Below the pieces are notes generated by a model. The model saw nothing but the letters and a program-made list of their open reading frames with translations. It made no database searches and was not told where the DNA came from. Positions 3,422 to 8,346 of a DNA stretch of 64,000 bases are shown piece after piece. Within the stretch, counting starts at the first letter, position 1, and the number at the start of each line of letters is the position of its first letter. The position numbers were made by a program, and so were the translations under genes. The DNA is from Vicinamibacteria bacterium (GTDB lineage Bacteria; Acidobacteriota; Vicinamibacteria; Marinacidobacterales; Marinacidobacteraceae), in NCBI GenBank assembly GCA_964291235.2, contig OZ219816.1:1920001-1984000 (forward strand), read 5' to 3'.

Positions 3422-3820
3422 TCACGTCGGCGATTCCCCGTCCGGAAAGAAGAACGCGTCCGTATCGGACGGCTCGAAGAGACACCGATCGAGACGTACC
3501 CGGCCGCGATCGTCAAACGGGACTCTTTCCCGGACGAGGAGCGCCCGCTGCCGGCCGGGCTCGCAGTTCCCGCTCAGTTCGGCAGAAAGCAATCCCTCCG
3601 CATTCACCACCCGGTGCCAGGGAACGCCTTCGGGGGAATTTCGGAGCGCCCAGCCGGCCGCCCGGGCGGAGAGCGGATACCCGGCCGCGGTCACCGCCCG
3701 CGCCACCCGGCCGTAGGTGGTCACCCGGCCGGCGGGGACTTGCCGCACGACGGCGTGAACCCTGCGGAACTTGCCCTCGCTTCCCGGAGCGGAAAACGGA
3801 GCCGGCGGGAGAAGCGGCAT
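3422..3820 (-). CDS. Alkyltransferase-like (ATL/YbaZ-type) O6-alkylguanine-binding protein
   Basis: VPAGRVTTYGRVA, ARAAGWAL, PWHRVVN (Trp in place of the catalytic Cys of the MGMT PCHR motif), QRALLVRERV. Start at ATG 3820 is uncertain. Confidence 0.85.
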   Translation of the reverse strand: MPLLPPAPFSAPGSEGKFRRVHAVVRQVPAGRVTTYGRVARAVTAAGYPLSARAAGWALRNSPEGVPWHRVVNAEGLLSAELSGNCEPGRQRALLVRERVPFDDRGRVRLDRCLFEPSDTDAFFFPDGESPT

Positions 3821-3972
3821 CACCGGGGACGGGCCGGGGACCCTGGTCGGGAAACGTCGCGGCGGGAGCAAATGTGGTACAAGCGGGGGTCGTCCGTTCC
3901 GCCGGCCGAGGGCAGCCATCCGATCCTATCCTGCGGAAGGCGCGGCGCCGCACGGCGCCCGGAGGCTCGACC

Positions 3973-5913
3973 ATGACCCCGCCCCAGAAGATGCATCGCC
4001 CGTTCGGAGCCGGCGTCAGCCGCCGTGACTTCCTGTCCGGAGTACCGGTGGCGCTGACCGGAGCGGCGCTTGCCTGCCGCGAGGTCCCGGAGTTCCAGTC
4101 CGAGATCGACCGCGCCGGCGAGGCCAACTACCCGCCGCTCCGCACCGGGATGCGCGGGTCGCACGACGGCTCCTTCGAAGTCGGGCACCAGATGGCGCAC
4201 GAGGGACGCGAATGGCCGCCCACCGACACCGGGGAAAGCTACGACCTCGTGGTGGTGGGTGCCGGGATCTCCGGACTCTCCGCCGCCCACTACTTTCGTA
4301 AGCAGGCTGGCCCGGACGCCCGCATCCTGCTCCTCGACAACCACGACGACTTCGGCGGCCACGCCAAGCGCAACGAATTCCGGCTCGACGGCCGGACCTA
4401 CCTGATGAATGGCGGGACTCTGAACGTGGAGGCGCCGTCCCAGTACGGGGAGATCGCCGAAGGCCTGCTCAAGGAGATCGGGATCGACCGAACGCGCTAC
4501 TACGAGAGCATCAGCGCCGTCTCCGACACCTATGGAAGCCTGGGCCTCCAGCGGGCCATGTTCTTCGACCGCGAGACCTTCGGGGCGGACCAACTGGTCG
4601 CCGGGATCGGCAGGCGGCCGCTCGGGGAGTTCCTCGCCGACTCCCCGATGCCCGAGGCGGTGCGGAACGACCTGATCCGGCTGCACGCGGACGACCAGCC
4701 GGACTATCTCCCGGACCTCTCACCGGAGGAAAAGAAGGCGTACCTGGCCACCATCAGTTACAAGGACTTCCTGATCGAGCACGCCAAGTGCGATCCGGGG
4801 GTGGTCTGGTTCTTCGACCATCGGCCGAAGGGTCTCTTCTGCACCGGGATCGACGCCTACCCGGCGCGCTACGCCTGGGAGGAGGGTTTGCCGGGATTCT
4901 CGGGAATGGAGATTCCCCAGACGCCGCCGGATGTCCTCGCCGACGAGCCGGGCGGTCAGCACGGGCGGGAAAACCAGGCCCGGGCCGAAAAGGGCGATCC
5001 CGATCTCTACTTCCCGGACGGCAACGCCACGATCACCCGGTTGCTCGTCCGCGGGCTCATTCCGAGCGCCATCCCCGGCTCGACCATGGAAGACGTGGTC
5101 ATGGCGCCGCTGGACTACGGGATGCTGGACCAGGCCGGCAATTCGACCCGGATTCGGCTCTCCTCGACCGTGATCCGCGTCGAACCGGGCGAGGCCGGCC
5201 CGGCCCGCATCACGTACGTGCACGGCGACCAGGGGCACACGGTCGCCGCCGGGCGCGTCGTCCTGGCCTGCTGGCACAACATCATTCCCTACCTCGTTCC
5301 CGAACTGCCGAAGGCGCAGCGGGACGCCCTGTCGTGGCCGGTCAAGTCGCCGCTGCAGTACACGAGCGTCCTGCTCCGCAACTGGCGGGCATTCACCGAG
5401 GCGGGCGTCTCTTCGATTGCCGCGCCTGGCGGGTACCACACCTCGATCGGGCTGGCCCCTCAGCTGGCGCTCGGCGACTACCGCACCTCCACCTCTCCTG
5501 ACGAGCCGCTGGTAGTGCGGATGAACCGCTATCCCTGCGAGCCCGGGCTCTCGCGCCGGGAGCAGCACCAGATCGGCCGGATGGAACTCCTCCACACCAC
5601 CTTCGAAACGGTGGAGGCGAATATCCGCGACCAGCTCAACCGGATGCTCGGCCGGAGCGGCTTCGACGACCAGCGCGACATCGCCGCGATCACGGTCAAC
5701 CGCTGGCCGCACGGCTACACGTATTCCTACAACCCGATGTTCGATCCCCCGGAATGGGCTTTCGAGGCCGGCGACGACCGCCCGCACGTCTCCGCCCGGC
5801 AACCGTTCGGACGAATCGCCATCGCGGGCACCGACTCCGCCGGCAGCCCGCATAGCGACGCGGCGATCCGGGAGGCGCACCGGGCGGTCGGAGAGATCCT
5901 CGCCGCGGACTGA
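3973..5913 (+). CDS. Tat-exported FAD oxidoreductase, spermidine dehydrogenase SpdH-like
   Basis: GGAGG at 3961, SRRDFL Tat motif, YPPLRTGMRGSHDGSFEVGH, VVGAGISG FAD motif, DNHDDFGGHAKRNEF, FPDGNA, ITVNRWPHGY. Confidence 0.85.
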   Translation: MTPPQKMHRPFGAGVSRRDFLSGVPVALTGAALACREVPEFQSEIDRAGEANYPPLRTGMRGSHDGSFEVGHQMAHEGREWPPTDTGESYDLVVVGAGISGLSAAHYFRKQAGPDARILLLDNHDDFGGHAKRNEFRLDGRTYLMNGGTLNVEAPSQYGEIAEGLLKEIGIDRTRYYESISAVSDTYGSLGLQRAMFFDRETFGADQLVAGIGRRPLGEFLADSPMPEAVRNDLIRLHADDQPDYLPDLSPEEKKAYLATISYKDFLIEHAKCDPGVVWFFDHRPKGLFCTGIDAYPARYAWEEGLPGFSGMEIPQTPPDVLADEPGGQHGRENQARAEKGDPDLYFPDGNATITRLLVRGLIPSAIPGSTMEDVVMAPLDYGMLDQAGNSTRIRLSSTVIRVEPGEAGPARITYVHGDQGHTVAAGRVVLACWHNIIPYLVPELPKAQRDALSWPVKSPLQYTSVLLRNWRAFTEAGVSSIAAPGGYHTSIGLAPQLALGDYRTSTSPDEPLVVRMNRYPCEPGLSRREQHQIGRMELLHTTFETVEANIRDQLNRMLGRSGFDDQRDIAAITVNRWPHGYTYSYNPMFDPPEWAFEAGDDRPHVSARQPFGRIAIAGTDSAGSPHSDAAIREAHRAVGEILAAD

Positions 5914-5932
5914 CGGACGGTCTGGAGACAAC

Positions 5933-6262
5933 GTGGAAAGTGACCTGATCCTCTACGGCGTTCCGTTACTTGTCCTGGTGGTGTCCGCTCCGATGACCCT
6001 GGGCATCGTCCCCCCCAACCGGATCTACGGTTTCCGGACGGAAGAGACCCTCTCATCTCCGGAGGTCTGGTATCCGGCCAATCGGGCGTGTGGGTGGTTC
6101 ATGGTTGCCGCCGCGGCCGTCTCCGTCTGCTTCAACCTGGCCTTGTCGTCGGCCTTTCCGGAATGGCCGCTGGAACGGCTGAGGCCGTGGATGGTGGGCG
6201 GAAACGTCGTACCGCTGCTGGCGGGAGCCGCCGCGTCCTACGTTTACCTCCGCCGGCTCTGA
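5933..6262 (+). CDS. SdpI/YhfL family small membrane protein
   Basis: PPNRIYGFRT...W..ANR motif, three hydrophobic segments, GGAG before the GTG start. Confidence 0.8.
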   Translation: MESDLILYGVPLLVLVVSAPMTLGIVPPNRIYGFRTEETLSSPEVWYPANRACGWFMVAAAAVSVCFNLALSSAFPEWPLERLRPWMVGGNVVPLLAGAAASYVYLRRL

Positions 6263-6309
6263 GGAAACGACCCAAGGACCGTACCGCCGACGGATGGACA
6301 CCTGCTGAC

Positions 6310-6984
6310 GTGACGTTCGAGGCCCGGGTGAGGACCGCCATCCTGGGGGTCTTCGCCGAGACCGGGGTCGCACCGGCCCCAGACGGGATCGCCGAGCGGC
6401 TGGGATCGGACGTCGCCGCCGTCCGGGCGGCCTGGGGCCGCCTCCGGGAGGGCCGCGCCATCGTCACCGGCAAGGATGGGGTCTCCATCCGGATGGCGAA
6501 CCCCTTCTCCGGGATTCCCACCGAGCACACCTTCGAATCGGGGGGCGTCCGCTACTACGCGAACTGCGCGTGGGACGCCCTCGGCATCCCAGCGGCGCTC
6601 GGCCTGGGAGGGACCGTCTCGTCGCGCTGCGCGAACTCCGGAGAACCGCTGTGGCTCGAAGTTACGGACGACGGTCCGGGCCCCTGCGGCTGGTTCTTCC
6701 ACTCGCTGGTGCCGGCGGCCCACTGGTGGGACGACATCGTCTTCACTTGAGCGAACATGCTGTTCTTCCGGTCGGAAGACGACCTCCGGGCCTGGTGCGG
6801 CGAGCGCGGCGTGGAGCCGGGACCGAGGGTGCCGGTGCCCCAGCTCTGGAACCTTTCGAAGGTCTGGTACGGAGACCGGCTCGACCCCGAGGCGCCCCGC
6901 CCCACACCCGTAGAGGCCCGCGCTATCTTCGCGGGCGTGGGACTGACCGGCGCCTTCTGGGACCCGGTTTCCCGTCAGGAGTAA
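6310..6984 (+). CDS. MerB-like organomercurial/organometallic lyase, probable selenoprotein (UGA at 6748-6750 read as Sec)
   Basis: N-terminal wHTH-like region, MANPFSGIPT, ANCAWDALGI (Cys-x2-Asp), then WWDDIVFT-UGA-ANMLFFRSE continuing in frame into ORF 6757-6984; SECIS-like hairpin directly after the UGA. GTG start at 6310 is uncertain. Confidence 0.85.
6762..6780 (+). promoter_or_regulatory. Bacterial SECIS-like element
   Basis: TCTTCC (6764-6769) pairs with GGAAGA (6774-6779) around a GGTC loop (6770-6773); G6762-C6780 closes across a bulged U; loop starts 19 nt after the UGA. Confidence 0.8.
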
Positions 6985-6987
6985 GCC

Positions 6988-8346
6988 ATGACCGACAAGC
7001 GGACCGACAAGCGATCCGGGTTGACCCGAAGGCAACTGCTGGCTGCCGGCGCGGGCGCCGCCGCCGCCGGCCCCGCGCTCGCGGGCGTTCAGGCGGCGGC
7101 AGCGAGTCTGCTAACCGCGCCCGGGATCCCGAACGTCCGCATCGGGTTCGTGGGAGTCGGCGGCATGGGCACCGTCCACGTCCGGAACCTGCTCGCGGTG
7201 GGGAAGGCGTCCCCCGGGGTGGAGATCCGGGCGGTCTGCGACGTCCGGCCCGAGCACGCCGAGCGGGCTCGGGACTTCGTGCGAGAGGCCGGGGGCCCCG
7301 ACCCGACGCTCTACACCCGGGGAGAACGGGACTACGAGCGGATGTGCGCCGAGGAGGACCTCGACCTCGTCTTCACCGCCACTCCCTGGCGCTTCCACGT
7401 CCCGGTATGCGTCGCCGCCATGGAACACGGCAAGCACGCCGCCACCGAGGTGCCGGCCGCCACCACCCTCGACGAATGCTGGCAACTCGTGGAGACCGCG
7501 GAGCGGACCGGCCGCCATTGCGTGATGATGGAGAACTGCAACTACGGCCGGTGGGAGATGATGGTGTTCCACCTGGTCCGGCTGGGGATGTTCGGCGAAG
7601 TGCTCCACGCCGAAGGCGGCTATCTCCACGACCTCCGCGAGGTGAAGTTCGCAAACCGCGGGGAGGGTCTTTGGCGGCGCGCCCACTCCCGTACGCGGGA
7701 CGCGAACCTCTACCCGACACACGGCCTCGGCCCGGTGGCGAACTGCATGGACATCGGCCGCGGCGACCGATTCGACTACCTGGTCTCGATGAGCGGCCCG
7801 TCGCGCGGGCTACAGGACTACGCGCGGGAGCACTTCCCCGAGGGAGCGCCGCAGCGGGCCGAGGAGTTCCGGCTCGGCGACGTGAACCTGAGCCTGATCA
7901 AGACGGCCCGGGGCCGGACGATCACCGTGGTCCACGACACGAACCTGCCCCGGCCGTACAGCCGGATCAACCTGGTCCAGGGCACCCGAGGCATCTTCCA
8001 GGGCTACCCGAACCGGGTGTACGTCGAGGGTAAGAGCGAGTCGCACCGCTGGGACGACGCCGAGACCTGGCGCGCGGAATACGAGCACCCGCTCTGGCGA
8101 AACGTCGCGAGCCCCGGCGAGGAACTCGGGCACGGGCGGATGGACTACCTCGAGGACTACCGGCTGATCCGTTGCCTCCAGGAGGGGTTGCCCACCGAGA
8201 TGAACGTCTATGACGCGGCGGCGCTCTCGGCGGTCACCGACCTGAGCGAGCGGTCCGTGGCGGACCGGAGCCGGCCGATGGACTTCCCGGACTTCACCCG
8301 GGGCGGGTGGAAGACGTTCCCGAAGCTTCCGGTGGTCACGAACTAA
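6988..8346 (+). CDS. Tat-exported Gfo/Idh/MocA oxidoreductase, GH109 alpha-N-acetylgalactosaminidase-like
   Basis: TRRQLL Tat motif, IGFVGVGGMG, ATPWRFH, TEVPAA, MMENCNY, GGYLHDLR, LYPTHGLGP, PRPYSR, GHGRMD. Confidence 0.88.
   Translation: MTDKRTDKRSGLTRRQLLAAGAGAAAAGPALAGVQAAAASLLTAPGIPNVRIGFVGVGGMGTVHVRNLLAVGKASPGVEIRAVCDVRPEHAERARDFVREAGGPDPTLYTRGERDYERMCAEEDLDLVFTATPWRFHVPVCVAAMEHGKHAATEVPAATTLDECWQLVETAERTGRHCVMMENCNYGRWEMMVFHLVRLGMFGEVLHAEGGYLHDLREVKFANRGEGLWRRAHSRTRDANLYPTHGLGPVANCMDIGRGDRFDYLVSMSGPSRGLQDYAREHFPEGAPQRAEEFRLGDVNLSLIKTARGRTITVVHDTNLPRPYSRINLVQGTRGIFQGYPNRVYVEGKSESHRWDDAETWRAEYEHPLWRNVASPGEELGHGRMDYLEDYRLIRCLQEGLPTEMNVYDAAALSAVTDLSERSVADRSRPMDFPDFTRGGWKTFPKLPVVTN

Follow-up and report, generated by a model that had tools for sequence, protein, structure and literature searches.

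In the canonical lyase MerB, a pair of cysteines binds the metal of the substrate while an aspartate protonates the carbon, and this chemistry is the basis of the analogy drawn here. A selenium-containing relative is SaoL, a MerB-like organometallic lyase selenoprotein of the nine-gene SAO cassette, whose hosts are, according to the accessible text of the preprint describing it, spirochaetes, deltaproteobacteria and Firmicutes, all of them anaerobes (Haft and Gwadz, bioRxiv 10.1101/2022.07.06.499078). In the accessible portions of the literature, the SaoL type is also the only MerB-like selenoprotein that we found (bioRxiv 10.1101/2022.07.06.499078; PMC9312934; PMC13188914); MerB is not mentioned in the main text of the BSepDB paper, and the survey supplements and the content of BSepDB may list the clade described below. 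Here we analyze a window of 64,000 nucleotides from a Vicinamibacteria bacterium (assembly GCA_964291235.2, contig OZ219816.1, positions 1,920,001 to 1,984,000; plain coordinates below count from the first letter of this window), in which a gene on the forward strand at 6310-6984 is, with high probability, one intact selenoprotein gene with the MerB fold. An in-frame UGA occupies the position of a catalytic cysteine of MerB in this gene and in its relatives from at least eight phyla.

The frame of the open reading frame (ORF) at 6088-6750 (+) runs on into that at 6757-6984, the sole break being the TGA at 6748-6750, which is followed by GCG AAC. Translation across the TGA yields ...WWDDIVFT-U-ANMLFFRSE..., exactly as the first-pass annotation of this DNA, made from the letters alone, had read it. 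The same annotation had taken the two ORFs for one MerB-family gene, with a Cys-x2-Asp pair upstream and the UGA on the second catalytic cysteine, and profile searches and alignments to solved MerB chains now support this in full. Against the Pfam MerB profile (PF03243, gathering cut-off 27 bits), the N-terminal fragment alone reaches 50.9 bits over profile positions 1-80, and the C-terminal fragment alone 21.0 bits over positions 88-126, below the cut-off, whereas the read-through protein reaches 91.4 bits over positions 1-126 of 126. It follows that the two ORFs make up the halves of a single domain, the MerB catalytic domain, which covers residues 66-188 (6505-6873, +) and is the only PF03243 match anywhere in the genome of the window. 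Since the first residue of homologues, e.g. P0003, corresponds to codon GTG 6310, this codon is taken as the likely start of the gene; the alternative GTG at 6088 would run into the upstream SdpI-like gene (5933-6262). Read from GTG 6310, the protein begins MTFEARVRTAIL, and the coding sequence is complete, comprising 224 residues with the TGA as codon 147, predicted to be read as selenocysteine (Sec147), and a TAA stop at 6982-6984.

The equivalences at the active site were derived from phmmer alignment to solved MerB chains. Codon 147 (TGA, 6748-6750, +) aligns with the first cysteine, Cys159, of the Cys-Cys pair of MerB, and the NCAWD motif places Cys86 (TGC, 6565-6567, +) on Cys96 and Asp89 (GAC, 6574-6576, +) on the proton donor Asp99. 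Cys86 and Asp89 are both present in all 80 of the aligned TGA-containing relatives (hereafter Sec forms), Cys86 also in at least 90% of the 68-sequence alignment (A2) that served as input for structure prediction. A further cysteine, Cys107 (TGC, 6628-6630, +), aligns with the fourth cysteine of MerB, which we take to be Cys117 (ssrCansgePl against sshCaatgaPv), and is Cys in 86% of the Sec forms. As judged from these alignments, Sec147 together with Cys86 and Asp89 is the equivalent of the MerB catalytic triad. The AlphaFold2 model of the protein has a mean predicted local distance difference test score (pLDDT) of 96.5 and a predicted template modelling score (pTM) of 0.92, and Foldseek returned 11 matches in the PDB at E <= 0.001, all of them MerB or MerB2 (best E 3.9e-11, TM 0.48-0.71). 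The N-terminal three-helix region, approximately residues 1-55 (6310-6474, +; model helices 3-18, 24-31 and 35-47), is part of the MerB fold; its weak local Foldseek matches to the N-terminal domains of DtxR and LexA (E 0.3-1, 54-63 columns) only hint at a resemblance to a winged helix. At the other end, a conserved extension of about 35 residues follows the Pfam domain.

A scan of genome contigs gave 297 relatives, and among the best 80, which are 42-83% identical to the query, TGA is found at the Sec column in 80 of 80, with frame and similarity running on past it. These loci carry the labels Acidobacteriota, Gemmatimonadota, Chloroflexota, Candidatus Eisenbacteria, Verrucomicrobiota, Planctomycetota, Calditrichota and Actinomycetota (Gaiellales, Solirubrobacterales), i.e. 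at least eight phyla. A metagenome scan seeded with the database protein P0060 gave 116 relatives, the best 80 of which have TGA without exception, so that the column is TGA in 160 of 160 loci and never TAA or TAG. In the Sec forms, the residue directly before the TGA is Thr in 80 of 80. Closer to the window, a sample of 151 genomes from the same class contains 33 with a match (E <= 1e-10), with one TGA in 30 of the 33, and the gene is present in 13 of 14 other genomes of the genus, with TGA in all 13. Among predicted proteins, 119 of the 120 best-listed clusters span just 54-65% of the query (123-160 residues) and end at the UGA. Distant relatives were collected with a HMMER scan of 1.84 billion representatives, which gave 1687 matches at E <= 1e-3 and 575 at E <= 1e-10. 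Tallying the 62 representatives of at least 195 residues among the best 150 (25-44% identity), we find that the Sec column holds Cys in 51, W in two, a gap in two, and a different residue in each of the other seven (N, A, S, Y, H, Q and G). Alternation of TGA with Cys, as these alignments present it, is the classical signature of a selenoprotein family.

The DNA at the site is reproduced by contigs from four public sequencing runs, which agree with 6690-7049 without a differing letter (word depths 33-67 in three of the runs). The four runs belong to one study, were compared as contigs only and may be the source of the window DNA itself, and all that they establish is that no one-off assembly error produced the TGA.

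Some peculiarities of individual sequences were noted at and beyond this column. The ATG at 6757-6759 (Met150), three codons past the UGA, is kept in 80 of 80 aligned sequences (window plus L015-L094); the column holds T, M, L or I in Cys forms, and Ile in four metagenome loci (L163, L165, L172, L174). Locus L078 has a second in-frame TGA at about 3487-3489, at the conserved Trp162 (TGG in others); a pseudogene, a second recoding event or an error of sequencing in that metagenome-assembled genome could each explain it. In L073, the C-terminal translation is unlike all relatives from about 20 residues past the Sec codon, suggesting a frameshift in the contig.

Downstream of the UGA, within the coding sequence, lies a candidate bacterial selenocysteine insertion sequence (SECIS) hairpin at 6763-6780 (+), in which 6763-6769 would pair with 6774-6780 around a GGUC loop at 6770-6773, 19 nt past the UGA. 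In E. coli, the apical loop of the fdhF SECIS is similarly small, contains G/U and lies at a comparable distance from its UGA. According to the accessible text of PMC13188914, bacterial SECIS elements have a loop of 3-9 nt with G in its initial two positions, a stem of 4-16 bp, a spacing of 16-37 nt and an MFE (minimum free energy) of at most -7.5 kcal/mol; the GGUC loop, the 6-7 bp stem and the 19-nt spacing lie within the geometric part of these rules. In the window and 79 loci, columns of the stem and loop show no or almost no variation, and the codon choice for the hairpin-coding Phe-Arg-Ser-Glu is almost fixed (TTC 79/80, CGG 79/79, TCG 79/80, GAA 68/80), whereas conserved codons elsewhere in the same genes vary (Arg CGG 37/79, Ser TCG 39/74, Glu GAG 48/70 and 53/67). 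On the named structure 95.9% of the cells are paired, as opposed to 50-69% after the 3' partner has been shifted by 1-3 columns. One locus, L034, has a double change from C-G to A-U in the stem, the outermost pair alternates between U-A, C-G and U-G, and one-sided stem changes are G-U wobbles. The hairpin core recurs in metagenomes (76 loci tallied). The case for a SECIS element, as it appears from these patterns, rests on purifying selection at the RNA level and not on energy.

The machinery for decoding is present in the genome of the window (3.45 Mb, two contigs, 90% complete): selA scores 498 bits (cut-off 268), selB 311 bits summed (cut-off 242) and selD 249 bits (cut-off 125), and a tRNA-Sec with the anticodon TCA was found. 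Likewise, selA exceeds its cut-off in five of five genomes of distant carriers (L028, L036, L058, L085, L071). In the class sample, selA occurs in 137 of 151 genomes, including 30 of 30 TGA carriers, and none of the 14 genomes lacking selA has a match to the gene.

In an unrooted FastTree phylogeny of 141 rows, 66 Sec forms fall into one strongly supported group that mixes phyla, together with two odd database rows, while 14 Sec forms of Actinomycetota make up a second group and L081 stands alone among Cys forms. The well-supported branches force at least three changes between Sec and Cys; many other forks are unsupported. The hairpin core is common to both Sec groups, which suggests common ancestry of the Sec forms, and the mixing of phyla suggests that the gene has spread by horizontal transfer.

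Combining the alignments with the chemistry of MerB, we envisage the following mechanism. The UGA at 6748-6750 would be decoded as Sec by the SelA, SelB, SelD and tRNA-Sec of the cell, with recoding directed by the hairpin inside the coding sequence (6763-6780); from the sequence patterns above, we infer actual Sec insertion at this codon. The thiolate of Cys86 and the selenolate of Sec147 would then bind the metal of an organometal(loid), most plausibly an organomercurial (R-Hg+), and Asp89 would protonate the leaving carbon, whereby the carbon-metal bond would be cleaved. That the protein is a lyase acting on an organomercurial is, by analogy with MerB, a proposition to which we give slightly less than an even chance. 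That no aligned Sec form lacks Asp89 (80 of 80) speaks for catalysis rather than mere binding.

Several observations weigh against recoding, or against the proposed chemistry. At the RNA level, the hairpin of the window has an MFE of -7.3 kcal/mol, just short of the -7.5 rule given in the accessible text of PMC13188914 (three other loci straddle it, at -7.0 to -9.8 kcal/mol), and its z-score is -1.05, with 29 of 200 shuffles folding equally well. The 91-nt context folds no better than shuffles (z 0.28), its MFE structure being different from the conserved hairpin, and an Rfam scan of 6650-6900 (E <= 10) returned no SECIS family, only two chance matches. Covariation is thin, with two of seven pairs changing on both sides and five of seven not. 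Co-occurrence with selA is weak evidence, because nearly all genomes of the class have selA and related genomes do not count as independent. At the Sec column itself, the database translations P0060, P0135 and P0173 show W; either the TGA was translated as Trp by the source, or these are rare TGG variants. With regard to the chemistry, the genome has no MerA over the cut-off (best 366 bits against 454), and no mer transport or regulator genes were seen near the homologues, with merR, merT and merP not searched genome-wide by family. Removal of a tightly Se-bound Hg(II) product is hard to picture without MerA, the Hg-Se bond being very strong, and this keeps alive two alternatives, a trap or sensor and a lyase for another substrate.

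The first alternative is a genuine selenoprotein that binds, traps or senses metal(loid)s, its Cys/Sec pair sequestering Hg(II), methylmercury or another soft metal stoichiometrically. Such a role would dispense with a MerA to take the product, and with the conserved partner genes that are also missing, and it would sidestep the difficulty of release that the strength of Hg-Se bonds imposes as a matter of general chemistry. Some Cys relatives moreover carry Cys in place of the aspartate (NCAWC-type), like a tri-thiolate site, and in four Cys forms the MerB-like part is joined to a LuxR-type DNA-binding domain, suggesting a sensor role. Both the Asp-to-Cys and the LuxR-fused forms, however, fall outside the Sec clades, and within these the whole MerB triad is kept, including Asp89 in every aligned Sec form, which binding alone would not need. 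We therefore consider a stoichiometric binder unlikely, though still worth keeping in mind.

The second alternative retains a Sec-dependent lyase and changes its substrate to an organoarsenic, organotin, organolead or organoselenium compound, or to another carbon-metal(loid) or carbon-chalcogen bond. In its favour, the protein scores far under the curated MerB cut-offs (45.8 bits against 193, and 44.3 against 200) and has no mer context; in addition, the accessible text on SaoL argues that Sec at the metal site makes organomercurial specificity uncertain, and notes that MerB accommodates other metals (bioRxiv 10.1101/2022.07.06.499078). Against this, the 117 flanking ORFs analyzed give no hint of arsenic, tin or selenium metabolism, and protonolysis of the C-Hg bond is the sole biochemistry known for the MerB fold. 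A different substrate is thus rather improbable in our estimate.

The remaining alternatives deny Sec altogether. That the TGA is a true stop, leaving a pseudogene, a sequencing error, or a 146-residue fragment followed by a 75-residue ORF from ATG 6757, is very improbable: gene callers yield exactly those fragments and an ATG stands three codons past the TGA in all 80 aligned sequences, but no TAA or TAG ever replaces the TGA in the 160 loci, frame and similarity continue across it, the Pfam profile spans the junction, four metagenome loci have Ile for Met at the restart codon, the contigs of the four runs have no variant at the site, and a fragment without the Cys159 equivalent would miss a catalytic residue. 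That the UGA specifies a standard amino acid, whether because the code is reassigned (to Trp or Gly) or by near-cognate read-through, is scarcely credible despite the W of P0060, P0135 and P0173, as TGA is an ordinary stop elsewhere in the genome (the SdpI-like gene, at 6260-6262, and a gene ending at C2:689671 that is followed by a separate gene), the full Sec machinery is encoded, the RNA just 3' of the UGA is under constraint, and the 80 nearest metagenome relatives of P0060, the best of them 83% identical, have TGA in all cases and TGG in none.

An intact selenoprotein gene with a MerB-type triad hence accounts best for the locus. The first-pass annotation had come to the same view from the letters, describing a stand-alone gene, with no mer or SAO genes in the window, that pipelines would split, and its expectations are matched by what was subsequently found: databases keep the gene as a fragment of about 146 residues, selA, selB, selD and tRNA-Sec are all in the genome, homologues have Cys or UGA at the column with no Trp in nucleotide data, the recurrence of the TGA in 160 of 160 loci and in the four-run contigs speaks against a sequencing error, and no MerA, SaoB or SaoP reaches its cut-off genome-wide. 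Where it fell short was in extent, as it understated as a single oddity what is a large, many-phylum clade with a conserved candidate SECIS hairpin.

The gene lies in a run of four tightly spaced genes on the forward strand (3874-8346), comprising a FAD/NAD oxidoreductase (3874-5913), the SdpI-like gene (5933-6262), the MerB-like gene and a GH109-like oxidoreductase (6988-8346), whose start is 3 nt past the MerB-like stop; an amidohydrolase and a phosphodiesterase are also neighbours. By eye, the GH109-like protein and possibly the FAD/NAD oxidoreductase have twin-arginine-like, arginine-rich leaders. This gene order recurs in just 9-13 closely related loci. In Gemmatimonadales, loci L055, L057, L058, L062 and L063 have a different shared neighbourhood, which recurs in 4-6 loci and includes a NicO-type metal transporter, a DinB-family protein, DoxX, an F420/NADP-type oxidoreductase and a zinc-ribbon protein. 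Neighbouring genes were called by a greedy choice weighted by GC content at third codon positions, which in high-GC DNA is crude and leaves start codons unreliable. The Pfam scan of the flanks covered 117 ORFs of at least 100 residues from 66 loci, only L017 and L028 being kept among L015-L029; DoxX is the commonest family, with six occurrences, and no mer family is among the 25 most frequent in this set. The MerB-like gene stands alone, without conserved partner genes.

A crude scan of the genome for a UGA with a downstream hairpin gave 40 candidates, three of which were looked at, including the MerB-like gene. One of the other two is a second, unannotated selenoprotein gene at about C1:714726-715280 (-), with its TGA at C1:715028 (locus L095 327-881, -); the product is AhpD-like and peroxidase-related, with a CxxU motif and 140 bits against TIGR01926 (cut-off 81.8), and the UGA of the gene is followed by an 8-bp hairpin whose loop, at nt 23, is placed as in the MerB-like gene. 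The third candidate, at C2:689671, was rejected as a recoding site, being a plain stop between two genes. As a separate observation, selD lies within a 795-residue open frame (C1:1306925-1308700, +), the N-terminal part of which weakly matches the pyridine-nucleotide-disulfide oxidoreductase (MerA-type) family, suggesting an oxidoreductase-SelD fusion.

The carrier phyla are usually seen as aerobic soil or marine heterotrophs. Selenoproteins are seldom kept by aerobic bacteria, as the accessible text of a 2026 review has it (PMC13188914). The clade is present in public databases as 'hypothetical' fragments of about 146 residues, in clusters that number in the hundreds (at E <= 1e-10, 575 representatives, many of which end at the UGA). 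No NCBIfam model (release 20.0) reaches its own cut-off on the MerB-like protein, and with the database copies truncated, genome annotation and environmental surveys based on merB overlook the clade or score it wrongly. The near-invariant 18-nt hairpin, common to at least eight phyla, would make it a clean natural case of a mobile gene that carries its own SECIS. If the protein is a lyase, cleavage of the carbon-metal bond would be decoupled from MerA, which raises the question of the role of Sec and of how the product leaves. One wider reading, which we put forward only as a tentative and rather doubtful possibility, is a selenium-dependent organometal lyase, independent of the mer operon and horizontally spread through Acidobacteriota, Gemmatimonadota, Actinomycetota, Chloroflexota, Verrucomicrobiota and other soil and marine lineages. 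Its selenolate at the Cys159 position would provide enough affinity for methylmercury to be captured and demethylated, or for another organometal(loid) to be cleaved, at trace concentrations in the environment. If true, it would represent an overlooked sink in metal cycling, missed by merB surveys since the database copies are truncated, and would place Sec in metal chemistry well beyond strict anaerobes.

Compared with canonical MerB (PDB 3F0O, 3F0P, 3F2F, 1S6L), the protein of the window has the same fold (Foldseek E 4e-11, TM about 0.6, 24-27% identity), belongs to the same Pfam family and has aligned equivalents of Cys96, Asp99 and the fourth cysteine. It differs in having Sec for Cys159, Ala for the adjacent second cysteine and a conserved C-terminal extension of about 35 residues. 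Assignment as canonical MerB (NCBIfam NF009710, NF033555; EC 4.99.1.2) was rejected on the scores given above. The best TM-score among solved structures is to Bacillus MerB2 (PDB 5C17; TMq 0.66, TMt 0.71), a Cys enzyme of the mer operon that is 24% identical to the protein of the window (phmmer E 7e-4 over residues 20-119).

The nearest full-length relatives are Cys-containing 'alkylmercury lyase family' proteins of about 225-235 residues (e.g. P0122, P0123, P0125; 30-40% identity), which share the length and the C-terminal extension and, as tallied above, mostly have Cys at the Sec column (51/62). Unlike the protein of the window, they are without the frozen hairpin codons, and many have Cys for Asp89. 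These NCAWC-type proteins form a large subgroup (e.g. P0153, P0157, P0174, P0206) with three cysteines at the site, which by sequence resembles a site for binding metal(loid)s more than one for lyase chemistry. Four further Cys forms of 311-326 residues (P0139, P0166, P0207, P0227) have the MerB-like domain fused to a LuxR/NarL-type helix-turn-helix, and the domain may there be a sensor.

Assignment as SaoL was likewise rejected: the protein reaches 31.3 bits against NF040728 (cut-off 140), over residues 29-120 only, and its motif is Thr-Sec-Ala, not Cys-Sec. Of the other SAO components, SaoP gave at best 59.9 bits (cut-off 295) and SaoB had no match in the 90%-complete genome, in a search in which no positive control matched. 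SaoL and the protein of the window are alike in the MerB fold, in Sec at the position of MerB Cys159 and in the equivalents of Cys96 and Asp99. They differ in motif, which is Thr-Sec-(Ala/Ser/Gly) throughout the clade of the window and Cys-Sec in SaoL, as far as the accessible text on the latter goes, and in their hosts, which, by the same text, are anaerobes for SaoL but are Acidobacteriota, Gemmatimonadota, Actinomycetota, Chloroflexota, Verrucomicrobiota and others for the clade described here. With its own motif, candidate SECIS, context and host range, it thus appears as an independent-looking second clade of MerB-like selenoproteins beside SaoL.

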